DNA of 12,467 bases from a virus (taxonomy: Duplodnaviria; Heunggongvirae; Uroviricota; Caudoviricetes): positions 1 through 12,467 of the IMG/VR virus record IMGVR_UViG_2778261382_000004. One strand, written 5' to 3'. The translations under genes and the position numbers were made by a program. Shown one piece after another: positions 1 to 12,467 of this stretch. The notes beneath the pieces were generated by a model. The model was not told the origin of the DNA, made no database searches, and saw nothing but the letters and a program-made list of their open reading frames with translations. The stretch's first letter is position 1; every line of letters begins with the position of its first letter.

Positions 1-219
1 TCACATCCACATAATTTGCTGCCCTGACGGCAACGGGTGCGGCCTTACGGCGTGGACTTCTCCCGGCTTCACGATGTATCGCTGTACCGACTCATAAGTG
101 ATGAACGTGGCACTGCAATTCACGTTCTGGCACTGATGATAACGCTCTTTTGTCGTGTCAGTGATATAGCGGCTTGTACGCGCATGTGCGGCATGCTGGC
201 ATAAAGGACAATGAAACAT
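1..219 (-). CDS. ogr: Ogr late-gene transcription activator (C4 zinc finger)
   Basis: Translation from the ATG at 217-219 reads MFHCPLCQHAAHARTSRYITDTTKERYHQCQNVNCSATF..., recognised from memory as P2 Ogr with a CxxC...CxxxxC zinc-binding pattern. The tabulated ORF extends to 282 but the recognisable protein starts at the internal Met. Stop codon is at 1-3. Confidence 0.85.
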   Translation of the reverse strand: MFHCPLCQHAAHARTSRYITDTTKERYHQCQNVNCSATFITYESVQRYIVKPGEVHAVRPHPLPSGQQIMWM

Positions 220-300
220 CGCGAGCACCTCTTCCGGTTTTGTTGATGGTGCCATTTTAGTTAATTTATCCTTATAAAACAAACAGATAAAATAAAAGCA

Positions 301-801
301 TCACTCATCATCTTCTGTTTCGTACTCCACATCAGAAAGCCTGACCTCAAGCTCCAAGGACGTCGTGAAGCCGCTATTATTCAGAAAATGTGTCACCTTA
401 GTGATTGTCCAGTCCTGCTCGTCTATGACGCGCTTAAAGCCTGACACTTTAACCGGTGTTTCCGTGTAAATATCTGCCCGACCGGTAGCCAGGCTGATGG
501 AGAACTCCGCCACACCCCGTTGCAGTTTATCCCACTTCGCCTGAGCGGCGCGCATGGCCTGCGCTTTCGTGGCATATACCGTGGTCAGGGCAAAAACGTT
601 GTCAGCCTCACCGGCCATGTATTCACCTTCGCGCGCTTCCGGTACTTTTGGCGCTTTCTTCTGCGTGACCGGTTTCGCTTTCGGGTGCTCCAGTGCGCGC
701 AGGTGTTTTTCTTTCTTTTTGCGTTTCAGTTTTACCTTCTGCTTTTGCGGCTTCGGGTCTTTGGTGTGTATCCTGAAATCCCGCCAGATTGGCGCGACGT
801 T
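301..801 (-). pseudogene. D: Tail gene D, C-terminal fragment only (N-terminal roughly 60 percent missing)
   Basis: Reading frame open from 801 down to the stop at 301-303, ending ...FKRVIDEQDWTITKVTHFLNNSGFTTSLELEVRLSDVEYETEDDE. It sits immediately upstream of ogr in the same orientation, as D does in P2. The frame is closed by a stop at 802-804 and there is no plausible start or upstream D sequence. Identification as gpD is from context plus sequence memory. Confidence 0.55.
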
Positions 802-2053
802 TTATTTTTCCCGCGAGGCGCTGCTGCGCGCCCTGAAAACCGGTCATAACCAGATTTTTCTGTCGGCCAGTAAAACGCAGGCGTATGTGTTCCGCGAATA
901 CATCATCGCCTTTGCCCGTCTGGTTGACGTTGACCTGACCGGTGACCCGATTGTCCTGGGCAATAACGGCGCAAAACTGATTTTTCTCGGCACCAACTCC
1001 AACACCGCACAGAGCCATAACGGCGACCTGTACGTCGACGAGATTTTCTGGATCCCGAATTTTCAGGTACTGCGTAAGGTGGCATCAGGTATGGCCTCAC
1101 AGAGTCACCTGCGCTCGACCTATTTCTCCACCCCGTCCACGCTGGCGCACGACGCCTACCCGTTCTGGTCGGGTGAACTGTTCAACCGGGGACGCGCCAG
1201 CGCCGCCGAACGTGTGGAAATCGACGTCAGTCATAACGCCCTTGCCAGCGGGCTTCTCTGTGCGGACGGCCAGTGGCGGCAGATTGTCACCATTGAGGAC
1301 GCCCTGAAAGGCGGCTGCACACTGTTCGACATTGAGCAGCTCAAACGTGAAAACAGCGCCGACGATTTTAAAAACCTGTTCATGTGTGAATTTGTTGACG
1401 ACAAGGCGTCGGTGTTCCCGTTCGAGGAGCTGCAACGCTGCATGGTCGACACGCTGGAAGAATGGGAAGACTATGCGCCGTTTGCCGCCAATCCGTTCGG
1501 CTCACGTCCGGTATGGATTGGTTACGACCCGTCACACCGTGGCGACAGCGCCGGATGCGTGGTGCTGGCACCGCCGGTGGTGGCCGGTGGCAAATTCAGA
1601 ATACTTGAGCGTCACCAGTGGAAAGGCATGGACTTTGCCACCCAGGCGGAATCCATCCGCAAACTCACCGAAAAATACAACGTCGAATACATCGGCATTG
1701 ATGCCACCGGCCTTGGTGTCGGCGTGTTCCAGCTCGTGCGCTCGTTCTATCCTGCCGCGCGCGATATCCGCTACACGCCGGAAATGAAAACCGCAATGGT
1801 GCTCAAGGCCAAAGACGTTATCCGCCGTGGCTGTCTGGAATATGACGTCAGCGCCACCGACATCACCAGCTCGTTTATGGCTATCCGCAAGACCATGACC
1901 AGCAGCGGACGCAGCGCCACCTATGAGGCCAGTCGCAGCGAGGAAGCCAGCCACGCCGACCTCGCCTGGGCGACCATGCACGCCCTGTTAAATGAGCCAC
2001 TCACCGCCGGTATCAGCACCCCGCTGACATCCACCATTCTGGAGTTTTACTGA
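779..2053 (+). pseudogene. P: Terminase large (ATPase/nuclease) subunit gpP, N-terminally truncated
   Basis: Protein-like sequence begins near codon 76 of ORF 554..2053 with a Walker-A-like SRQIGATFYFSREALL, followed by LYVDEIFWIP and a long terminase-like C-terminal part. The first 75 codons of the ORF (554-778) are Cys/Phe-rich nonsense that is antisense to the D fragment. The stop overlaps the Q start (TGATG at 2051-2055), as in a P-Q operon. Confidence 0.65.
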
Positions 2054-3087
2054 TGAGCAAGAAAGAAGGGAAAACACCGCAGCCAGCGGCAAAAACAATC
2101 ACCGCCAGCGCCCCGAAAATGGAAGCATTCACCTTTGGCGAGCCGGTGCCGGTACTCGACCGCCGTGACATTCTGGATTACGTCGAATGCATCAGTAACG
2201 GCAGATGGTATGAGCCGCCGGTCAGCTTTACCGGTCTGGCAAAAAGCCTGCGTGCTGCCGTGCATCACAGCTCACCGATTTACGTCAAACGCAATATTCT
2301 GGCCTCAACATTTATCCCGCATCCGTGGCTTTCGCAACAGGATTTCAGCCGCTTTGTGCTGGATTTTCTGGTGTTCGGTAATGCGTTTCTGGAAAAGCGT
2401 TACAGCACCACCGGTAAGGTCATCAGACTGGAAACCTCACCGGCAAAATATACCCGCCGTGGTGTGGAAGAGGATGTTTACTGGTGGGTGCCGTCCTTCA
2501 ACGAGCCGACACCTTTCACGCCCGGTTCCGTGTTTCACCTGCTGGAGCCGGATATTAATCAGGAGCTGTACGGCCTGCCGGAATATCTCAGCGCCCTTAA
2601 CTCTGCCTGGCTGAATGAGTCGGCCACGCTGTTCCGCCGCAAGTATTACGAAAACGGCGCACATGCCGGATACATCATGTACGTTACCGATGCCGTGCAG
2701 GATCGCAACGATATCGAAATGCTTCGCGAAAACATGGTGAAGTCGAAAGGCCGCAACAACTTTAAAAACCTGTTTCTCTATGCCCCGCAGGGGAAAGCCG
2801 ACGGCATTAAAATTATCCCGCTCAGTGAAGTGGCGACGAAGGACGATTTTTTTAATATCAAAAAAGCCAGCGCCGCTGACCTGCTGGACGCACACCGCAT
2901 CCCCTTTCAGTTGATGGGTGGCAAGCCGGAGAACGTCGGGTCACTGGGCGATATTGAGAAAGTGGCAAAGGTCTTTGTCCGCAATGAGCTAATCCCGTTA
3001 CAGGACAGGATTCGGGAAATAAACGGCTGGCTCGGCCAGGAGGTCATCCGCTTTAAAAACTACTCACTGGACACTGACAACGGCTGA
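2053..3087 (+). CDS. Q: Portal protein gpQ
   Basis: 344-aa ORF, the same length as P2 gpQ, directly downstream of and overlapping the terminase gene, followed by a terminator and the cos site. The sequence MSKKEGKTPQPAAKT...GKPENVGSLGDIEKVAKVFVRNELIPLQDRIREINGWLGQ is recognised as P2-type portal. Confidence 0.85.
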   Translation: MSKKEGKTPQPAAKTITASAPKMEAFTFGEPVPVLDRRDILDYVECISNGRWYEPPVSFTGLAKSLRAAVHHSSPIYVKRNILASTFIPHPWLSQQDFSRFVLDFLVFGNAFLEKRYSTTGKVIRLETSPAKYTRRGVEEDVYWWVPSFNEPTPFTPGSVFHLLEPDINQELYGLPEYLSALNSAWLNESATLFRRKYYENGAHAGYIMYVTDAVQDRNDIEMLRENMVKSKGRNNFKNLFLYAPQGKADGIKIIPLSEVATKDDFFNIKKASAADLLDAHRIPFQLMGGKPENVGSLGDIEKVAKVFVRNELIPLQDRIREINGWLGQEVIRFKNYSLDTDNG

Positions 3088-3092
3088 ACATC

Positions 3093-3114
3093 GCCGCCTG
3101 CGGGCGGCTTTTTT
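3093..3114 (+). terminator. Rho-independent terminator of the P-Q operon
   Basis: Perfect GC stem GCCGCC (3093-3098) / GGCGGC (3103-3108) with loop TGCG, followed by TTTTTT (3109-3114), 6 nt after the Q stop codon. Confidence 0.7.
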
Positions 3115-3256
3115 ACACCCCGTCATCACGCCCTCACACGCTCACCACCGCACAAAACAGCCCGCAGACACACCAACGCCCCGGCGCACAATCTAAACGC
3201 CATTACGACGCGCTGAGACGCTGAAAAAATAAAATCAGCACCACCGCCAGCGCGCA

Positions 3257-3275
3257 GTGCTTTCCCCGCCTCGCC
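3257..3275. other. cos site (19-nt cohesive-end sequence of P2/186/P4 type)
   Basis: gtgctttccccgcctcgcc at 3257-3275 is the reverse complement of GGCGAGGCGGGGAAAGCAC, which I recall as the P2-family 19-nt cohesive end. It lies about 170 bp beyond the Q stop, where cos is expected. Confidence 0.65.
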
Positions 3276-3311
3276 CGCCCGCTTCATGGGGCGGTTTTAA
3301 TGCAGTTGCAC

Positions 3312-3333
3312 AGCCATGTCAAAGCCATGTCAA
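3312..3333. repeat. Perfect tandem duplication of an 11-bp unit AGCCATGTCAA next to cos
   Basis: AGCCATGTCAA at 3312-3322 is repeated exactly at 3323-3333, 37 bp from the cos 19-mer. Confidence 0.8.
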
Positions 3334-3518
3334 CACTAGCAGTATGTAAAAAGAGCAGATATAAGAAACAAATGCAGTTTCATGCAAAAAGCGACACACA
3401 TCATGTCATGAAACAAAGCCGCTAATGAACACTTGCTTTGGTTATCTTAAGGTTTTATCTTCAGCCTAACCTATTGATTGCATGAAACTAAAATGAACTC
3501 TCAGCAAGGAACGACTAT

Positions 3519-5477
3519 ATGTCAGATTTCGAAATTAAAATTGATTTGAATGTGCTAAATCACCTAGGGATGAGTCTCTATTCCAATACTCCCGCGGTAC
3601 TAACTGAGATTATATCAAATGCATGGGATGCAGATGCTCAAAATGTAGAAATTACACTTGATGTTGAGAAAGGAGAGGTCATCATTAAAGATGATGGTCA
3701 TGGCATGTCTAAAGATGACATTATTAATAAGTTCCTAAAAGTCGGTTATGCTCGCAGGGAACATGGAAGAGCCAAAAGCGATCATCTAAAACGTCAAGTT
3801 ATGGGCAGAAAAGGTATTGGTAAGCTTGCCATGTTTTCACTTGCCAATAAAATCCAAGTTTATTCGTACAAAAAGGGGGAACAGCCTCAGGCCTTTGAGG
3901 TAGATGTCAAAGATTTACAGCAAAGTATCAAAGAATCAAAAAACTATATTGCTGACTCCCTTGAAATACCCGAAAATCTTGCTTACGGCACTACAATTAA
4001 ATTATTTGAACTAAAAAAAGCCATTGATAGGACTCAAACTTACCTCAGAAAGCGAATAGCTCGTCGATTTAGCATTATTGGCCCCAACCATAACTTTACA
4101 GTTAAAATTAATGGGACCGATATTACACCGGCAGATAGAGATTTCCTTTCAGATCTCGAGTTCATTTGGGAATTTGGCGAATCCGACCCTGAAAGGATAA
4201 AATCCTGCACAAACATCACACAAAAAAACATATTACCAAATACTATTACCTTTGAAGGAAAAGATGTAAAAGTTAGTGGGTACATTGGCAGTGTAGTTAA
4301 GCCATCACAGTTAAAGAAAGACCCTGAAATATCTAACAACAGCATTACTGTAATCTCTCACGGACGTGTTTTTGAGGAGGACATATTATTAGAATTTGGA
4401 AGTGCTAAAGTATTCACCAATTATCTGGTCGGTGAAATAGTCGCCGATTTTCTAGATGATAACGAAAAGCCTGATATGGCAACATCTTCTCGTCAAAAAC
4501 TACAACAGAATGATCCAAGATACCCTGTACTTAAAGGTTTTCTGGAAAGAACGCTACAACTAATCGATAAAGATTGGGATAAATGGAGACGCGAAAAAGG
4601 AGTAAATGAAGTTAAAAGCAATACTCCAATAGTAAGTGAATGGCTGAATTCTCTCAAAAAACATGAGAGAGAAAGTGCCGAAAAGTTAATTGGACGAGTA
4701 AACACATTCCGTTTTTCTGGTAATGAGGAAGAACAAAAAGCAGCAAGAAAAACCGTATTAAAAAATACGGTATTAGCCTTTGAAAGACTTAGAATTCAAG
4801 ACAACCTTGATGCATTAGATAAAATAAGCAACCTTCAATCAGAAAATTTTAAAGATGTATTTGCATCTGTCAATGACATTGAAGCAAGCATGTTTTATGA
4901 AATTACTTCGCAACGCCTTAAAGTAATTGAAAAATTCCAAAAAATAACTGATGAAAATCAGCTTGAAAGAGCTGTACAAATGTATTTATATGATCATTTA
5001 TGGTTATTGGATCCTTCATGGGAAAGAGTCACAGGCACATCTGTTATGGAGCAAACATTGACCAAGGAACTAAAACAGATAAACCCTGATGCTGCTAGCG
5101 GTGCTCGTATTGATATCGCTTTCAAAACCGTTTCTGGCAAGCATGTAATTATTGAGATGAAACGACCTAAAGTGCACCCAGATATAATGAACCTAGTCGC
5201 ACAAGGTAATAAATATGTACAGGCAACGACACAATGGTTCTCCAATAACCCTAAAAATTGCCCAGGTGGAAATATACCGCATATAGAAGTAATATTCCTG
5301 GTTGGCTCTGGATATTTACAAGAGAACCAACACTTTATAAATATGCAATTACTTTCTATCAATGGAAAAATATTGACATATAATGACCTAATCGTGCAAT
5401 CAAAACAAGCCTATGCTGAATATCAAGACAAAAAGAATGATGCAGCTAGAATTATGAAAATAGTTGAGGGAATCTAA
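3519..5477 (+). CDS. GHKL (Bergerat-fold, HATPase_c_3-like) ATPase with a C-terminal PD-(D/E)xK-like nuclease motif; candidate restriction/effector component
   Basis: N-terminal GHKL motifs: E..SNAWDA (nt 3606-3632), DDGHGM (nt 3690-3704), GRKGIGKLA (nt 3804-3830). C-terminal ...GARIDIAFKTVSGKHVIIEMKRPK... has D (nt 5112-5114) then E-x-K (nt 5154-5162) with hydrophobic flanks, as in PD-(D/E)xK nucleases. AAGGA lies 8 nt upstream of the ATG. The gene is AT-rich relative to the prophage backbone. Confidence 0.7.
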   Translation: MSDFEIKIDLNVLNHLGMSLYSNTPAVLTEIISNAWDADAQNVEITLDVEKGEVIIKDDGHGMSKDDIINKFLKVGYARREHGRAKSDHLKRQVMGRKGIGKLAMFSLANKIQVYSYKKGEQPQAFEVDVKDLQQSIKESKNYIADSLEIPENLAYGTTIKLFELKKAIDRTQTYLRKRIARRFSIIGPNHNFTVKINGTDITPADRDFLSDLEFIWEFGESDPERIKSCTNITQKNILPNTITFEGKDVKVSGYIGSVVKPSQLKKDPEISNNSITVISHGRVFEEDILLEFGSAKVFTNYLVGEIVADFLDDNEKPDMATSSRQKLQQNDPRYPVLKGFLERTLQLIDKDWDKWRREKGVNEVKSNTPIVSEWLNSLKKHERESAEKLIGRVNTFRFSGNEEEQKAARKTVLKNTVLAFERLRIQDNLDALDKISNLQSENFKDVFASVNDIEASMFYEITSQRLKVIEKFQKITDENQLERAVQMYLYDHLWLLDPSWERVTGTSVMEQTLTKELKQINPDAASGARIDIAFKTVSGKHVIIEMKRPKVHPDIMNLVAQGNKYVQATTQWFSNNPKNCPGGNIPHIEVIFLVGSGYLQENQHFINMQLLSINGKILTYNDLIVQSKQAYAEYQDKKNDAARIMKIVEGI

Positions 5478-5482
5478 TTATA

Positions 5483-5506
5483 CCCCCCTGTTTTTTGACA
5501 GGGGGG
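5483..5506. terminator. GC-rich hairpin between convergent genes, probable bidirectional terminator
   Basis: CCCCCCTGT (5483-5491) / ACAGGGGGG (5498-5506) form a perfect 9-bp stem with loop TTTTTG, inside the 41-bp gap between the two convergent stop codons (5475-5477 and 5519-5521). There is no clean U-tract, so efficiency is uncertain. Confidence 0.45.
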
Positions 5507-5518
5507 ATGACATAAGTT

Positions 5519-6568
5519 TTAAATATTCATTTCTGACAAATGTTTTAAAATAGTTTCACCTACGACCTCACCAAGCCTAACAGGAACAGCATTACCTATT
5601 AAACGCGCAACTGTTCTCATTTCAATTTTTACATCATCAGGCCAAAACTCATACTTTTCTGGGAATGACTGTAATAGCGCAGCCTCTCTTAAACTTAATG
5701 CTCTATTTTGGACAGGGTGCCCAAAGCGTCCATTCCCATATCCAATACATTGAGTTGTAATTGTCGGTCCAAGTTTATCCCAACACATTCTCCCATATAC
5801 AGCAGTATATGTAGAACCACTTTCTTTTGTATGACATTTTGCTCTTAGCTCTTCTGGCCAATCACGCCATGTTCCACCAGGTTTTGATGCCATTATTCTT
5901 TTTATATTAATATCAGATAATGATGCAGAGCGATGTAGTTTATCTCCAGCGTGAACAGCACCGGCACTAATTTCAGGAAGATTACCGATTATATCTCGCA
6001 CCGTTTTATAATCATTCTTCTCATGAGTTGGTGGAATTATTTCTATTTCTCCATATTTTGATGCCAATAACACTAATCTTGAACGACTTTGTGCCATTCC
6101 ATAGTCTGGACAAAACACCACCCCATACCAAACAAAATAGCCATCATTTTTAAGAGACTTAATGAAGTCCTTAAAAACCTTATGATTCACCACTCGGGGA
6201 ACGTTTTCCATTGTAATAATATCTGGCTTTGCAAATTTAATTTGCTTAGCAAAGCTATAAAGCAAAGACCATCTTTTATCTTTTGAACGTACTACCCCTA
6301 ATTTAGCACTATTGGTATAGCTTGAAAAAGGTTGGCATGGGGCACAACCAGCCAAAACTCGAACCTTCGCTCCTTCGAAATATTTAACTAATTCGCCGTC
6401 CTCAATGTCTGTAACACTTTTCTGGACAAAGAGTGATTTATTATTTGTCTCATAGGCAAATCGACAGGCTGCATCTATATCATAACCTGCAACTACATTA
6501 AGCCCCGACTTCTGAAGACCGTGAGTCAAGCCACCCGCGCCACAGAATAAATCAACAACCTTAATCAA
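5519..6568 (-). CDS. DNA (cytosine-5)-methyltransferase
   Basis: Canonical m5C MTase motifs in order: I DLFCGAGG, IV GCAPCQPFS (catalytic Cys codon at 6335-6337), VI ENV, VIII QSRSRL, IX/X RFGHP...RALSLREAALLQSFP...IGNAVP. Start chosen at TTG 6566-6568, preceded by a strong SD AGAAGGAGG (6575-6583) with a 6-nt spacer. The tabulated ORF begins further upstream at TTG 6668-6670 without an SD. Confidence 0.85.
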   Translation of the reverse strand: MIKVVDLFCGAGGLTHGLQKSGLNVVAGYDIDAACRFAYETNNKSLFVQKSVTDIEDGELVKYFEGAKVRVLAGCAPCQPFSSYTNSAKLGVVRSKDKRWSLLYSFAKQIKFAKPDIITMENVPRVVNHKVFKDFIKSLKNDGYFVWYGVVFCPDYGMAQSRSRLVLLASKYGEIEIIPPTHEKNDYKTVRDIIGNLPEISAGAVHAGDKLHRSASLSDINIKRIMASKPGGTWRDWPEELRAKCHTKESGSTYTAVYGRMCWDKLGPTITTQCIGYGNGRFGHPVQNRALSLREAALLQSFPEKYEFWPDDVKIEMRTVARLIGNAVPVRLGEVVGETILKHLSEMNI

Positions 6569-6624
6569 GATAAACCTCCTTCTAATGCTGTGGGGATTGT
6601 AGCATTGTTCTTTCTCATCATCGA

Positions 6625-6655
6625 TGTTTACTTGATGCTTGATTTGTGAATACAA
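6625..6655. promoter_or_regulatory. 11-bp inverted repeat in the MTase leader; candidate operator
   Basis: ATGCTTGATTT (6625-6635) and AAATCAAGCAT (6645-6655) with a 9-bp spacer. It lies between a TTGACA hexamer (minus strand, 6670-6665) and the MTase SD. No U-tract follows, so it is unlikely to be an intrinsic terminator for A. Confidence 0.4.
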
Positions 6656-6679
6656 AATCAAGCATGTCAATCATTATTG

Positions 6680-8953
6680 TTAGTTTGTTTCAAATCCCGC
6701 CCAACCATCAGAAATCGGATATGAAAACGTTTTCCCATCATAATTTACGGTCGCGCCACGCGCCAGCGCCTCAAGCTCCCATCGCTGCGGCCTGATACCG
6801 TTCTGAGCAAGGTCAACGCGGATACGGGTAATTTGCATTCGTTCCGACCGGGCCAGTCTGGCCGATGGTGCAATTTCATGTGGTTTTAACGAGCTTCCGT
6901 TTCTTTGCTGACGATTTGGCGTTCTCCGACCGTGTTTTAATGCACCTCTGAGCGCCCTCACGACCTCCGGGTCACTCCATTCGATAACACTGTCATCAAC
7001 CAGATTAAGCACTGCTGCGGCGTGCTCAGAAGGTGTGGGAGCCGGTAACGAAGTATCACCACCGGTGAGTTTTCCACAGTTATTGACAGGACTCCGAGGC
7101 GCGGCGATGCCGCTTTTTAAAGTCAAAGGCTCAACGACCGGCACTTTCGGAACAATGCGCCAGTCCGTCGTTCTGGTGATATGAATATGACGCGCGCCGA
7201 GATGCGGCGCGTAAATGCCGACCACTCTCTCGACTTCTTCCTCGTACTCGTTAACGTCATCCGACGGGCTACGGGCAACCCTGACAGTCTGGCAATCGCG
7301 CGGGACATTTGCCCCACCCTGCGCGCTGATATACAGCGCAAAATCACCACTGTCTGCGGCGGCGCGTGCAGCCTCGACGCGCTCGTCAAACTCATCAGCA
7401 ATGCTGACGCCGCGAGGCAATTTGCGTAGTTCACGGTAAGCCCCCATTGTCGGCAGGCCAACCGTTTTAAATTGCGGAATGCGCCACGTTGACGCCCATG
7501 CGGTAACAGCCGCGGCAGTATCTTTCAGCGGTCTGCCGGTATCGTTATCGAGCTGCCCATCCAGTGCATAGCCGTCGATATTTTTTGAGATGTATTTCGC
7601 GATATACCCCGCAGCACCGCCCCGGTTAAGGTGTTTTTCCTGAAAACGGTTTCGCGCGGCTCCTCTTTCGTCGCCATCCTCTTTGAGCGCATAGCGACGC
7701 ATGATTTCGATAATCTGGTTACGCTGGCGTGGATGACAAAAAAGCATCATATGCCAGTGCGGCGTTCCGTCGTGGTGTGGCTCGACGACACGCAAACCGT
7801 AGACCTGTAAATCATTATCCTTGAATGCCGTGCGCATCAGACTCCAGATACGGCAGAGATAACGCTGCGCATCCTTTGGATTAAATGCCTCATCGTTCCA
7901 GCCGTGATTAAGCTGAACGGTTTTACTTTCGCCTTTTCCGACCTGACGTGTCGGGTGATACTTTGACGGCGCGGTCAGCGTGATAAACATCCCCAAATCA
8001 CCCTCTGCGGCGGCGTAACGCTCAATACCGGCAATGGTGTTCATCAGCTCCATCCGGCGAATTTCTGGATTAGAAATACTGCCCATCACCTTACTGATAA
8101 GGTCGATGCGCTCGCCGGTTTCCCTGTTTTCAAGGTCACACGATTTAAGAAATTCCAGATTTGCCTGGCGGCGCGCACGCACATCACGAATGGCATGTTT
8201 ACTGGCATAAGGAGAACGGTCTTTATTGACCTCCCCGACAGCAATCAGTAACGCCTCATGCCAGCGCATACGCTGGCCTTTAAGCTGACTAATCCACCAC
8301 TCATCGTTAAACAGACGGGCAATGGCAGAATATGCCTGCCTCGTGGTCATCTGTCCTTTACTGTATTTTTTCCAGTAGAGCGGGGAAATATTGAAAGCAC
8401 GTGCAGCGCCAGCAACATGACCATACAGGTGAGCCTGCGCCTCATCCGTAAACAGCGATTCTTTTTCACCATGCGCATCAACCCATGCATCGCAGAGTTC
8501 CTCATACATCATGAAAAGCTGCGATGAGATACGGGCGGCAAACTTTTTCAGCTCCTTGTCATTCATTCCAGGCAGGCGCGCATAGTGGTCACGCTCTGCC
8601 AGAAACAGCAACGACGCGTCGGTGTTCATTTCATGGCGCTGATTCACGCGCTCAATGCGCGGCCATAAACGACGCTGAAAAGTGGATGTGAGGAAATAAA
8701 ACCCGTGCACCGGGCTTTTATTGCGCCGGATGTAGTCATAGCGTGAAGTAAACAGCGAACGCAAAAAGTAAGGCAGGCGGTTAATCGTGGATAAAACACC
8801 TTGCACCTGACGCATCTCGTCACGTGTAAGGGGTCTTTCGCGCCCGACGGCCTCGCGTGGCGCGTTCCATGCATAAGCACCGGTAAACGTCTTACCGGTG
8901 CCTGCGGCAAATGCTGACGGAGGGACAAAACGCCCGGAGGCTTTAACGTCCAT
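6680..8953 (-). CDS. A: Replication initiation protein gpA (rolling-circle nicking enzyme)
   Basis: Large ORF of P2 gpA size and position at the end of the early operon. It contains an HUH-like metal-binding motif HWHMMLF and, about 50 residues downstream, an active-site-like YIAKYISK. Start set at the ATG at 8951-8953 (MDVKASGRF...); the tabulated ORF begins at an upstream TTG at 8995. Confidence 0.85.
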   Translation of the reverse strand: MDVKASGRFVPPSAFAAGTGKTFTGAYAWNAPREAVGRERPLTRDEMRQVQGVLSTINRLPYFLRSLFTSRYDYIRRNKSPVHGFYFLTSTFQRRLWPRIERVNQRHEMNTDASLLFLAERDHYARLPGMNDKELKKFAARISSQLFMMYEELCDAWVDAHGEKESLFTDEAQAHLYGHVAGAARAFNISPLYWKKYSKGQMTTRQAYSAIARLFNDEWWISQLKGQRMRWHEALLIAVGEVNKDRSPYASKHAIRDVRARRQANLEFLKSCDLENRETGERIDLISKVMGSISNPEIRRMELMNTIAGIERYAAAEGDLGMFITLTAPSKYHPTRQVGKGESKTVQLNHGWNDEAFNPKDAQRYLCRIWSLMRTAFKDNDLQVYGLRVVEPHHDGTPHWHMMLFCHPRQRNQIIEIMRRYALKEDGDERGAARNRFQEKHLNRGGAAGYIAKYISKNIDGYALDGQLDNDTGRPLKDTAAAVTAWASTWRIPQFKTVGLPTMGAYRELRKLPRGVSIADEFDERVEAARAAADSGDFALYISAQGGANVPRDCQTVRVARSPSDDVNEYEEEVERVVGIYAPHLGARHIHITRTTDWRIVPKVPVVEPLTLKSGIAAPRSPVNNCGKLTGGDTSLPAPTPSEHAAAVLNLVDDSVIEWSDPEVVRALRGALKHGRRTPNRQQRNGSSLKPHEIAPSARLARSERMQITRIRVDLAQNGIRPQRWELEALARGATVNYDGKTFSYPISDGWAGFETN

Positions 8954-9218
8954 GTGAGCCAAAAGCCTCTGAACAACGCTTGCTGAGTTGCTCAACCTGC
9001 GCGTTTAAATCAGCAAAAGATTTTGCGCTTCCGGTCAGAATATCGTGATGCATCAGGCCGGAAACGAGCTGGCTTAATTTCGGGTAATAACCAACCACCG
9101 CCAGCCATTCCTGACCGGCGTTTTTACCGCTTTCCGCTCTCTTTTTCTCGTGGAGAATAAACTGAAAGCTGTCACTGGTAACGACATAACGTTCGCCAAT
9201 TTCAATACGAATACTCAT
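8943..9218 (-). CDS. Hypothetical early protein (position of P2 orf83)
   Basis: 91-aa ORF between the zinc-finger gene and A, 4-nt overlap with the upstream gene (ATGA), same strand and compact spacing as the P2 early operon. Confidence 0.55.
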   Translation of the reverse strand: MSIRIEIGERYVVTSDSFQFILHEKKRAESGKNAGQEWLAVVGYYPKLSQLVSGLMHHDILTGSAKSFADLNAQVEQLSKRCSEAFGSHGR

Positions 9219-9439
9219 GCCGTTCTCCGGTAATGTTTGTTTTTTGCTTCAAAGACTGACTGACAGGAAACACAACGCGTGGCTGACGGATAAGCCGCAC
9301 GACGGGCAGCAGGTATTGGCGCGTCACACTCTTCGCAAACCAGCGCAGAAGCACCGCAATGTTTTACCCTTGCCGCGTTAATCTGACGCTCCAGTAATTC
9401 AGCCTGTTGTTCCTGAATAAAATCTACGTTGTCCGGCAT
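9215..9439 (-). CDS. TraR/DksA-type C4 zinc-finger protein (position of P2 orf82)
   Basis: 74-aa ORF with two Cys pairs, CEECDAPIPAARRAAYPSATRCVSCQ, typical of the TraR/DksA zinc-finger family. Confidence 0.65.
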   Translation of the reverse strand: MPDNVDFIQEQQAELLERQINAARVKHCGASALVCEECDAPIPAARRAAYPSATRCVSCQSVFEAKNKHYRRTA

Positions 9440-9744
9440 TACCAGCTCCTTTTGTCGTTAAGTTTTTTAAATTCATCAGCGCAATAGCTGGCAATTTCTG
9501 TTGTTAATTTTGTCAGTTCATCCACGGAGGAGATTTTCTTGTGAAATACAGCGCGTTTAACAAGTAAATTGACCACATCAGACAGGAGATTTAATTCGTT
9601 CTGATAAATCGCGATAACAGACTCAGTTATTTCGCGTTTTTCTTTATCAAGACCAAGTTGAATAAGAGATAAATCGCCATTTTTCATAACGGCGATTTTT
9701 AAGGCGTTATTCAGTAATACAACTGAACGAGAACAGGACATCAA
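9439..9744 (-). CDS. Hypothetical early protein (position of P2 orf81)
   Basis: 101-aa ORF in the early operon; its start overlaps the upstream stop and its stop overlaps the downstream start. Confidence 0.55.
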
Positions 9745-9965
9745 AGCACCTCCCCGCGAGACAATCCGATATTGTGAAATTTTTCCGACTCCTGACTGAG
9801 CAGCTCGACTATCTCCACGCGGGATAACTCCGCCTTTGTGATGTGGCGAATCATGGCGTCAAGATGAGAAGAAAAGCGCGTCGCTGCGTCGGCCTGTGCT
9901 TCGGTTCTGGCCTGTTGCAGCAGTAATGCGTATTTACCGCACTGATTTTCAGAAACTGTATGCAT
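9741..9965 (-). CDS. Hypothetical early protein (position of P2 orf80)
   Basis: 74-aa ORF immediately downstream of B in the early operon. Confidence 0.55.
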
Positions 9966-10028
9966 GACTTTCTCCAGGCAAAAAGAAGCCCCGCACGATT
10001 AAGTGCGTTAAAAACTCTGGTTAATTAC

Positions 10029-10535
10029 TTAATGCAGATATTGCTCTGGTTTTACCGACGTCAGAATTGTCGGTGCATACTCAAACAGGCTGAATAATTC
10101 ACGTAATGCACGGAATAAAGCATCACGCCAGTAACATAATTCTTCATTAATTCGCCAGTATGGCTGGTTGAATTCTTTTTCAGTCAATCCGGCATGCATA
10201 AATAAAGTACGACGCTGACTGACTGTTAAAAAACTAATATATGCATACTCACTTGCGCCAACCTGACGGCGTTTTGAGAATGCCCCACGCAATTCATCAA
10301 TTGCACAAACCAGCCGTTCACGTTCGACGTCGTTCATTTCTTCAAAACGCATCGTTGCGTGACGCTGTTTTAACTGCGCATGGAAGCAAACCGTTAGCCG
10401 TTCGCGTTCCATCATCTGATTATAATAATCGCATGTCTCCTGCCAGCGAGGGACGGCCAGATGCTTACCAATTATCCGGCGCATAGCTGCTGGCTGTTTT
10501 TCAACGAGATTGAGCGTCATCACTGTCATTTCCAT
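10029..10535 (-). CDS. B: Replication protein gpB (helicase loader-like)
   Basis: 168-aa ORF beginning MEMTVMTLNLVEKQPAAMRRIIGKHLAVPRW..., recognised as P2 B (about 166 aa) and located between cox/orf78 and A as in P2. Confidence 0.8.
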   Translation of the reverse strand: MEMTVMTLNLVEKQPAAMRRIIGKHLAVPRWQETCDYYNQMMERERLTVCFHAQLKQRHATMRFEEMNDVERERLVCAIDELRGAFSKRRQVGASEYAYISFLTVSQRRTLFMHAGLTEKEFNQPYWRINEELCYWRDALFRALRELFSLFEYAPTILTSVKPEQYLH

Positions 10536-10723
10536 ACCCTCCGGCTTTTCAGAAAGGTCAGAGCCTTTTTTAACGGACTCTGTTTTTTGGTGCGGATAAT
10601 GATTCCCTTACGCCCCTTACCGTGGGTGATGGTGAAGTCAATCGCCCTGGGGCTTTCGTTACGCAGTAACTGAGCAATACAACGCGGTTCACTCATAATC
10701 ACAACCCCATCCACAAAAGCCAT
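10526..10723 (-). CDS. Small early protein (position of P2 orf78); start uncertain
   Basis: ORF between cox and B. The ATG at 10721-10723 overlaps the cox 3' end. An alternative ATG at 10694-10696 sits just past the cox stop with a G-rich SD-like stretch 8 nt upstream, giving 56 aa. Confidence 0.4.
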   Translation of the reverse strand: MAFVDGVVIMSEPRCIAQLLRNESPRAIDFTITHGKGRKGIIIRTKKQSPLKKALTFLKSRRVWK

Positions 10724-10971
10724 GCATCACGCTGTTCAACTGGTCGGTTATAAAACGCCTCTCGTACAGCGCGATTAAACTCTGGAATGAAAACCCACTT
10801 CTCACCGACACGGGCGTTCGGCTTACTTGGATCACGAAGCTCAATAACTGGCAATTTATTCTCTTTTACCATCTTGACTACAGCCGTTTCTGGCTTACCA
10901 AGTAACTCTGCAAACTTAACCGTATGTACCGCATCAATCGGGTACTGAATCACATAGTCATTGACTTCCAT
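10699..10971 (-). CDS. cox: Cox excisionase / early-promoter-side repressor
   Basis: 90-aa ORF divergent from C, first gene of the early operon. KLPVIELRDPSKPNARVGEKWVFIPEFN resembles the P2 Cox core (KLPVI...W), and P2 Cox is 91 aa. Confidence 0.7.
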   Translation of the reverse strand: MEVNDYVIQYPIDAVHTVKFAELLGKPETAVVKMVKENKLPVIELRDPSKPNARVGEKWVFIPEFNRAVREAFYNRPVEQRDAWLLWMGL

Positions 10972-11123: not shown

Positions 11124-11417
11124 ATGCAGACATTCGAAAAACTGAAAGCGATTAGGAAAGCAGAAGGCTTAACACAGGCGAAATTCAGCGAAATTAGCGG
11201 GATAGCTCTAGGAACAGTCAAAAATTACGAAAGTGGGCATAAAGACCCTGGTCTCAGCATCGTTATGCGAGTCACAAATACGCCTTTATTTAAAAAATAT
11301 ACGCTCTGGTTAATGACTGGTGATACGTCACCACAAGCTGGTCAGATCGCGCCGGCTCTCGCACACATTGGGCAAAAACCAACAGAATCAGACCACTCCG
11401 AAAAACAGACTGGTTAA
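11124..11417 (+). CDS. C: C immunity repressor (P2 type)
   Basis: 97-aa ORF with an N-terminal HTH-like AEGLTQAKFSEISGIALGTVKNYESG and C-terminal ...KYTLWLMTG...SGQIAPALAH..., resembling the P2 C repressor (99 aa). It is upstream of int on the same strand and divergent from cox. Confidence 0.8.
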   Translation: MQTFEKLKAIRKAEGLTQAKFSEISGIALGTVKNYESGHKDPGLSIVMRVTNTPLFKKYTLWLMTGDTSPQAGQIAPALAHIGQKPTESDHSEKQTG

Positions 11418-11486
11418 CACTCTATAAACATTACATTTTCACTATTTGTTACCAAGATGGTGAATACAGCGTCAGAGGGCTTTCTT

Positions 11487-12467
11487 ATGTCAATTAAGAA
11501 GCTCGATGATGGACGCTATGAAGTGGACATTAGACCTCGCGGTCGCGACGGAAAACGCATCCGCAGGAAATTTGAAAGAAAAGCTGAGGCTGTAGCATTT
11601 GAGCGATACACAATCGCCTACGCCAGCCAGAAAGAATGGGCAGGTCAGCGAGCAGATCGCAGAACTTTGAGTGAGTTGCTGGACATCTGGTGGAAATATC
11701 ACGGGCAAAACCACGAGCATGGAACAAAAGAGTTTAATCATCTGCTCAAAACCATCAGCGGCATAGGTGATATACCAGTGAGCCGGATGAGCAAAAGAGC
11801 TTTGATGGATTATCGTTCCATGCGACTACGTGATGGTATCAGTGCCGCAACGATAAACCGTGACATGTACCGATTATCCGGCATGTTCACAAAATTAATT
11901 CAATTGGATGAATTTTCCGGGCAACACCCAATTCACGGACTGCCGCCACTGGCGGAGGCCAACCCTGAAATGACGTTCCTGGAAAAAGCAGAAATCGAAA
12001 AACTGTTAAATGTTTTGGATGGTGATGACTTACTTGTCGCACTTTTATGTCTGAGCACTGGAGGAAGATGGACGGAAGTTGCCACGCTAAAACCAGCACA
12101 GATTACAAATTGCAGGGTTACCTTCCTGAAAACCAAAAACGGTAAAAAGCGAACCGTGCCGATTTCTGAGGAACTGGAGAAAAAAGTTAAAGAGGAGGCC
12201 AGCGCTAAATTATTCAAAGTTGATTATGAGAAGTTTTGCGGGATTTTACGCAGAGTGAAGCCAGATATACCACCCAATCAGGCAACCCACATCCTGCGGC
12301 ATACATTCGCAAGCCATTTCATGATGAATGGGGGCAATATAATCGCACTGCAACAGATTCTGGGACATGCGAGCATTCAGCAGACGATGGCCTATGCGCA
12401 CCTTGCGCCTGACTACCTGCAAAATGCCGTCGCACTGAATCCTCTAAAAGGCGGAGTGACGTTATAA
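11487..12467 (+). CDS. int: Tyrosine integrase (P2 Int type)
   Basis: Starts MSIKKLDDGRYEVDIRPRGRDGKRIRRKF... at the ATG at 11487, with GAGGG 8 nt upstream; the tabulated ORF starts 10 codons earlier without an SD. The C-terminal catalytic region has HILRHTFASHF (HxxR) and the tyrosine in QTMAYAHL. The stop codon is the last 3 nt of the window. Confidence 0.85.
   Translation: MSIKKLDDGRYEVDIRPRGRDGKRIRRKFERKAEAVAFERYTIAYASQKEWAGQRADRRTLSELLDIWWKYHGQNHEHGTKEFNHLLKTISGIGDIPVSRMSKRALMDYRSMRLRDGISAATINRDMYRLSGMFTKLIQLDEFSGQHPIHGLPPLAEANPEMTFLEKAEIEKLLNVLDGDDLLVALLCLSTGGRWTEVATLKPAQITNCRVTFLKTKNGKKRTVPISEELEKKVKEEASAKLFKVDYEKFCGILRRVKPDIPPNQATHILRHTFASHFMMNGGNIIALQQILGHASIQQTMAYAHLAPDYLQNAVALNPLKGGVTL

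Follow-up and report, generated by a model that had tools for sequence, protein, structure and literature searches.

A very probable recent deletion scar between genes D and P of a P2-like prophage, and the recurrence of TA joints in related Escherichia coli remnants

Results

Gene content of the window

Positions 301-2053 of the virus record IMGVR_UViG_2778261382_000004, here analyzed over its whole stretch of 12,467 nucleotides (the window), are very probably the scar left when a P2-like (Peduovirus) prophage underwent one recent deletion that was independent of homology. The window as a whole corresponds to a P2-type prophage in inverted orientation, which begins at the stop codon of ogr and ends at the stop codon of int. 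The reference used throughout (L004) is the intact 32.4-kb P2-like prophage of E. coli CFSAN061771 (NZ_CP042896), which lies between fieF and cpxP and carries the same cargo; it is a near-identical relative and not the parent itself. The features of the window are as follows.

1..219, minus strand: ogr, complete late-gene activator gene, equal to ogrK of L004 (11603-11821); 97.7% identity to P2 ogr
220-300, spacer: ogr promoter; the P2 ogr -35/-10 signals map to this D-ogr spacer
301..770, minus strand: D', 3' fragment of tail gene D, codons 232-387 of 387 plus stop; 100% identical to L004 11903-12372
769..770, no strand: deletion junction with crossover dinucleotide TA, from three-way base-by-base alignment and exact-switch analysis
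554..2053, plus strand: chimeric ORF of 499 aa, 72 residues from D antisense in frame with gpP 164-590
770..2053, plus strand: P', 3' fragment of the terminase large-subunit gene P, codons 164-590 of 590; 100% protein identity
2053..3087, plus strand: Q (portal), complete; equal to the L004 portal gene 33276-34310
3093..3108, plus strand: terminator tQ of the P-Q operon, a terminator-like hairpin matching the position of P2 tQ
3257..3275, no strand: cos, the 19-nt cohesive-end sequence with both flanks, from the overlap of two P2 end alignments
3519-5477, plus strand: BbrUII/HgiDII-family restriction enzyme (RefSeq name of the identical L004 gene; Pfam HATPase_c_3)
5519-6568, minus strand: C5 cytosine methyltransferase (RefSeq name of the identical L004 gene; Pfam DNA_methylase)
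6680..10971, minus strand: early operon with A (6680-8953), homologues of orf83/82/81/80, the B region, and cox (10699-10971)
11124..11417, plus strand: immunity repressor C, within a block identical to L004 42347-43690
11487..12467, plus strand: integrase, within the same identical block; its stop codon is the end of the window

The position of cos follows from the placement of window 769-3275 on P2 2505-1 and of window 3257-3304 on P2 33593-33546, the 19-nt overlap being cosL/cosR. The restriction-modification (R-M) cargo (3519..6568) occupies the old/tin hotspot within a low-GC island at about 3300-6700 (GC 32-40% versus 50-60% elsewhere); it is identical to that of the intact CFSAN061771 prophage, and its restriction enzyme has a GHKL-ATPase-like N terminus. 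The early operon is colinear and identical with that of L004 save for one synonymous SNP at 7841, and is 96.7% identical to P2 26290-30294.

The junction and the deleted interval

BLASTN placed window 1-773 on L004 11603-12375 and window 769-12467 on L004 31992-43690, with identities of 770/770 in the left part and 11,698/11,699 in the right part (99.99% overall), and the only structural difference between the two sequences is a gap of 19,621 bp. A first-pass annotation, made from the letters of the window, had proposed that one deletion, starting within P, took out the capsid, lysis, and tail genes and ended in D, with a junction at about 760-800; alignment to the intact prophage returned precisely such a single gap and mapped its breakpoints. 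Read base by base, the match to the left parent is perfect as far as 770 and that to the right parent is perfect from 769 onward, which puts the crossover at the TA at 769-770, and the microhomology that had been anticipated there amounts to 2 nt only. This TA sits in an imperfect 5-nt TA[A/T]CC, flanked as GGTGTG-TA-ACC on the D side and CGCGA-TA-TCC on the P side. An overlap of that length is by itself at chance level, at least 2 nt being shared at 16% of random junctions; the joint has no significant homology, as in illegitimate recombination, and we infer that two double-strand ends were joined in this RecA-independent way. In a megablast search of 50,697 phage records, 122 matched the window, and the P-Q homology begins exactly at 769 in 25/25 of the P2-like matches listed. 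The same junction is present in an independent Logan contig (2.6 kb, run ERR4561312), which equals window 515-3159 with one 1-nt indel.

The fusion joins D nt 694 to P nt 489, D having lost its 5' 694 nt and P its 5' 488 nt. In P2 these two genes are divergent and about 19.8 kb apart, in agreement with the first-pass annotation, and its reading of the left side as a piece of D is borne out by tblastn and by identity to L004 for 301-770. With tblastn, gpD residues 232-387 plus stop aligned to 771-301 and gpP 164-590 plus stop to 770-2053 at 100% identity, whereas gpP 1-163 and gpD 1-231 were found nowhere in the whole window, an N terminus of P encoded elsewhere having been the finding that would have spoken against a truncated terminase gene. 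Likewise, no part of the deleted 19.6 kb of L004 was found elsewhere in the window.

The deleted L004 interval holds 29 annotated late genes, which include U, T, E/E', FII, FI, a small accessory gene, G, H, I, J, W, V, S, and R, the genes lysC, lysB, lysA, K, Y, and X, and L, M, N, and O. No capsid, small-terminase, lysis, or tail gene is left intact. The activator sites and start points of pP/pO, pV, and pF, as annotated in P2, also lie inside it, so that all four Ogr-dependent late promoters are gone and ogr is an activator without targets in cis. The orphan ogr survives with its own promoter (window 1-300), and its product could act in trans if a P2 or P4 resided in the same cell. With the late genes O to U annotated inside the deleted interval and D and P cut, the claim that the element makes no virions on its own stands, and the remnant is predicted to be unable to form particles or to lyse the cell. 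What the first-pass annotation listed as kept is indeed kept: integrase, repressor, cox, B, A, cos, portal, and R-M cargo are present with the same sequences as in the intact phage. The att repeats of L004 are at 11445 and 43806; because the window stops at the int stop codon, the att sites of the remnant fall outside it, and its length from att to att would be 32,361 - 19,621 = 12,740 bp.

Expression and annotation of the truncated genes

As had been noted from the open reading frames, the D frame on the minus strand is open from 801 to 301 and is closed by a TAA at 802-804. D' has neither a start codon of its own nor the pF promoter, and it matches positions 210-304 of 305 of the Pfam Phage_GPD profile below the cut-off. 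P' retains complete Terminase_6N ATPase (profile 1-215) and Terminase_6C nuclease domains. Missing from it are the N-terminal 163 aa, the promoter pP, and the Terminase_5/HTH match (gpP-type HTH), which only the intact gpP gives. The breakpoint in P lies three codons ahead of the KSRQIGAT segment, where the ATPase domain begins. A consensus scan of window 1-3500 found no sigma-70-like promoter, and on that basis P', Q, and the 499-aa chimeric ORF are most likely silent.

The P frame happens to be open upstream of the junction into D antisense, and gene callers report the resulting 499-aa ORF as a terminase. The chimeric protein is on record once, in the Logan contig of ERR4561312, and the annotation of another remnant (L001) presents a similar chimera as an intact terminase of 584 aa. 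Both 301-770 and 770-2053 are best labeled as fragments of pseudogenes, and the name terminase should be withheld from the 499-aa ORF.

Age of the deletion and alternative readings

The sole non-structural difference from L004 is the synonymous base 7841 in A, and there is no second lesion. The junction is absent from all 5,426 complete E. coli genomes searched, and a 45-mer spanning it was not found in GTDB species representatives, IMG/VR, or JGI metagenomes. Because the remnant has hardly diverged from the intact phage and its junction occurs in one Logan read set only, the deletion appears to be very recent and private to its lineage. With D and P truncated and O, N, M, L, and the lysis and tail genes missing, the element is a defective (cryptic) prophage. 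It belongs to Peduovirus by gene order and by nucleotide homology across ogr-D, P-Q-cos, and A-cox, and it lacks the full capsid, tail, and lysis operons that virions require.

The first-pass annotation went further and saw a pattern that fits a domesticated cryptic prophage retained for its cargo. On such a reading, selection for R-M and immunity would long have kept the element, and the lethal late genes would have been purged. The intact cargo, repressor, and integrase fit such a history, as does the recurrence of deletions that remove the late region (see below), but any fresh deletion leaves intact genes behind, with or without selection. The long vertical retention and purifying selection on kept genes that mark a domesticated prophage were not seen: with one synonymous difference in 12.5 kb, secondary decay is absent, a junction that turned up in a single read set, and in none of the 5,426 complete genomes or of three further collections, gives no sign of vertical inheritance or spread, and domestication is therefore unlikely.

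It had also been suggested that the element could be packaged by a helper; as a mini-P2 it would excise through int and cox, replicate through A in cis and B, and be cos-packaged by a P2-like phage, in effect as a satellite. The P2-type cos with both flanks (3257-3275) is compatible with such a helper, and the intact phage has identical int, cox, A, B, and ogr. The satellite P4 is 11.6 kb long, close to the 12.7 kb estimated here, and the ogr-to-int length of ten related remnants is 10.0-13.5 kb, although this range follows from the way the survey selected them. Against this, the element holds nothing beyond genes colinear with those of the parent phage, with neither capsid-size or helper-hijacking genes nor a distinct replicon of its own, and the same junction was not found in unrelated strains. 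A 12.7-kb monomer would also underfill the P2 head, and three copies (38 kb) would exceed the 32.4-kb parent. Among related remnants, cargo size and the amount of late DNA retained do not compensate for each other, and the clustering of their ogr-to-Q spans is weak (p = 0.035), all of which makes helper-dependent propagation quite improbable. Finally, a mis-assembly joining D' and P' across a repeat, conceivable for a window that comes from a single assembly of unknown quality, is highly implausible, given that D and P have no repeat in common, that the overlap is 2 nt, that the independent Logan contig carries the same join, and that junctions of like type are present in finished genomes.

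Survey of related remnants

A query composed of ogr, 6.4 kb of random filler, and Q was run against complete E. coli genomes; by design it ranks first the prophages that have ogr and Q no more than about 4.4 kb apart, whatever their breakpoints. Among 2,084 matching records we found at least 34 mini-prophages with about 23 junction architectures, inserted at three att sites (fieF-cpxP, pflB-pflA, and yegQ-yegR) and with ogr-to-Q spans of 1.4-5.7 kb. Many of them are damaged further, for instance by a deletion in A-cox or A-C, an inserted IS30 or IS5, or truncation of int, whereas the window has one lesion. Three D-P fusions, at 19.49, 19.62, and 19.71 kb, have lost nearly equal lengths of DNA.

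A fixed genome or packaging size, which these lengths had suggested, is not supported. The cluster of spans at about 3.1 kb is weak (scan p = 0.035; 4/20 new events, p = 0.037), total lengths vary between 10.0 and 13.5 kb, and cargo size is not offset by the late DNA that is kept. In seven independent deletions, the endpoints of which shift by more than 2 kb (ogr/O' to T'/Q'), the ogr-to-Q span is nearly constant at 2,991-3,273 bp (p about 0.035); four other deletions leave spans of 1,413-1,517 bp.

Several remnants are more complex. Those with more late DNA often bear a second deletion in which A is fused to cox, C, or int (L010, L016, L017, L018, and L001). At 13773-14518 of L018 (NZ_CP133811), pieces of N-M and T are inverted between U' and P', which implies that several breaks were rejoined in a new order and that this is not a simple deletion. 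The survey also turned up a curiosity of chromosome records: in L012 (NZ_AP027634) and L014 (NZ_CP172217), base 1 of the record lies inside the prophage A gene ("replication endonuclease"), and in L019 (NZ_CP076305), L023 (NZ_CP058618), and L024 (NZ_CP041628) the remnant lies 4-11 kb from the record start, suggesting the same A-gene start. A rotation tool probably took the prophage A gene for the chromosomal start gene.

Recurrent breakpoints and TA crossovers

Twenty-eight late-region and five early-region junctions, from 22 loci of complete E. coli genomes (L001, L002, and L007-L026) and from the window, were mapped onto L004 or P2; most of these prophages differ from the reference by 3-7%, and single junction calls may be off by 1-3 nt. 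Breakpoints were reused. A 14-nt segment of P (nt 1480-1493) is an endpoint of eight events, a clustering reached in 0/20,000 simulations, and it is joined to ogr, U, the U/T spacer, T (at two sites), FI, and J (at two sites). Other repeated sites are P nt 876-877 (endpoint of three events), ogr nt 17 (start of four events), and Q nt 173-176 (endpoint of two events), and the D site of the window (L004 12371-12372) is used again in strain H1827/12 (L026), where its partner is in J.

Microhomology at the mapped junctions is 0-5 nt. The crossover contains TA at about 19/33 junctions, and at 11/22 of those exactly resolved against L004, whereas a random junction in this DNA would have a TA crossover with a probability of 0.0047 (binomial p below 1e-16). 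When junctions using the three hottest sites were removed, the crossover still contained TA in 7/20. Among the early-region junctions, 3/5 cross at TA. Together, the TA crossovers and reused breakpoints argue against random decay of P2-like prophages, and they point to sequence-directed breakage and joining as the origin of the deletions.

A number of candidate mechanisms for the TA joints were rejected. Nicking by P2 gpA (an HUH nickase) at pseudo-origins does not fit, as its nick site CCTCGG/AGTCC contains no TA and neither endpoint is at ori. Chi-limited resection by RecBCD was discarded because Chi is absent from the 32-kb prophage: no Chi site (GCTGGTGG) occurs on either strand of L004 11400-43900, where several would be expected for E. 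coli DNA of that length. For hairpin-directed cleavage, the folding energy at breakpoints is not significantly below background (p = 0.075), with several of the TAs lying in small loops. Annotations show no IS at any ogr-Q junction, which disfavors IS-mediated deletion. As to restriction of the EcoRV type, GATATC adjoins two hot sites but not the rest, and the Rpn nucleases are reported to be without sequence specificity. Recombination by Int at secondary sites was set aside on the finding that the same hot sites are used in prophages with three different integrases and att sites.

The candidate that remains is recombination by type IIA topoisomerases (gyrase and topo IV), which needs little or no homology, as with the 2-nt TA of the window. 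Topo-Seq gives the E. coli gyrase consensus as ...CGGCGGTAT/NNNN/ATACCGCCG... (PMC6379681), and determinants common to gyrase and topo IV are -4G/+8C, -2A/+6T, and -1T/+5A. Consensus and determinants together put G-T-A and T-A-C just outside the staggered cut, which resembles the G-TA-C of many junctions. Reading outward from the TA, C is the adjacent base at 11/28 unique sites on the retained side, as against 3/28 on the side that was lost (Fisher p = 0.029), with a background of 0.23. The inner determinant (T on the inner side) is not enriched at these breakpoints, the combined score gives p = 0.08, strict 8-mer matches to the gyrase consensus give p = 0.054, and the flanks of the window's own junction fit the gyrase motif poorly. 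Taken as a hypothesis, these base preferences weakly suggest that type IIA topoisomerase cleavage may possibly lie behind the TA joints.

Discussion

The sequence relationships described here are best accounted for by the following scenario. The parent would have been a 32.4-kb Peduovirus prophage of the fieF-cpxP type with an HgiDII-type R-M pair in its old/tin hotspot. The DNA would have broken once in D and once in P, and the ends would have been joined at a common TA, with the loss of 19,621 bp; the product would be a mini-prophage of about 12.7 kb with ogr, D', P', Q, cos, R-M cargo, A, B, cox, C, and int. Its R-M cargo and immunity would still work. D' and P' would be dead 3' fragments diverging from the junction without promoters, the 499-aa ORF being a by-product. 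As for the source of the breaks, cleavage complexes of gyrase or topo IV, poisoned for example by quinolones, microcin B17, CcdB, or ParE, could have supplied them.

On its own, this is one more prophage without late genes, whose loss would be a single very recent event and not the outcome of a long domestication; the feature is an ordinary defective prophage of a well-known kind, made by internal deletion, although none of the other remnants has this junction. The wider comparison leads us to propose, tentatively, that a recurrent sequence-directed process cripples P2-like prophages in natural E. coli, using a limited set of break sites and TA joints, with gyrase or topo IV complexes as a plausible source and the deletion in the window as one instance; we found no description of such a recurrent TA-joint process in the literature. 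If this proposal holds, decaying prophages in nature would bear a legible trace of the mechanism behind their decay, possibly one tied to drug exposure. An intact twin exists, and upward of 20 independent deletions can be placed with single-base precision, so that P2-like prophages offer a natural data set on prophage inactivation.

Comparison with known P2-like elements places the window close to several of them. It has the gene order of phage P2 (NC_001895), to which ogr-D', P'-Q-cos, and A-cox are 96-98% identical, whereas C and int are only 70-79% identical to their P2 counterparts, so that the element would be heteroimmune to P2 and use another att site. From the CFSAN061771 prophage, with which it shares gene order, integrase, repressor, and cargo, it differs by the absence of 19,621 bp of morphogenesis and lysis genes together with the four late promoters. 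P4 is similar in having a P2-compatible cos, a comparable size, its own integrase, and no structural genes; it differs in possessing dedicated genes for replication, helper derepression, and capsid size (sid, psu, delta, epsilon, and alpha), all absent here, and the element in the window is by comparison a truncated helper. The P2 remnant of E. coli K-12, with ogrK and the D fragment yegZ, and the remnants in natural E. coli are like the window in that ogr stands beside the 3' stump of D or of another late gene and the late region was removed by a homology-independent deletion, but the other remnants have different junction partners and often carry IS insertions or extra deletions that affect A-cox or int. 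Defective P2-like elements whose defense genes are conserved have been described in a recent preprint (bioRxiv 10.64898/2026.02.27.708500), which, in the sections available to us, leaves the question of domestication undecided and treats the class statistically, without mapping junctions or mechanisms. That class, as presented in those sections, is like the window a non-mobile P2 derivative whose hotspot defense cargo is the same as that of intact phages.
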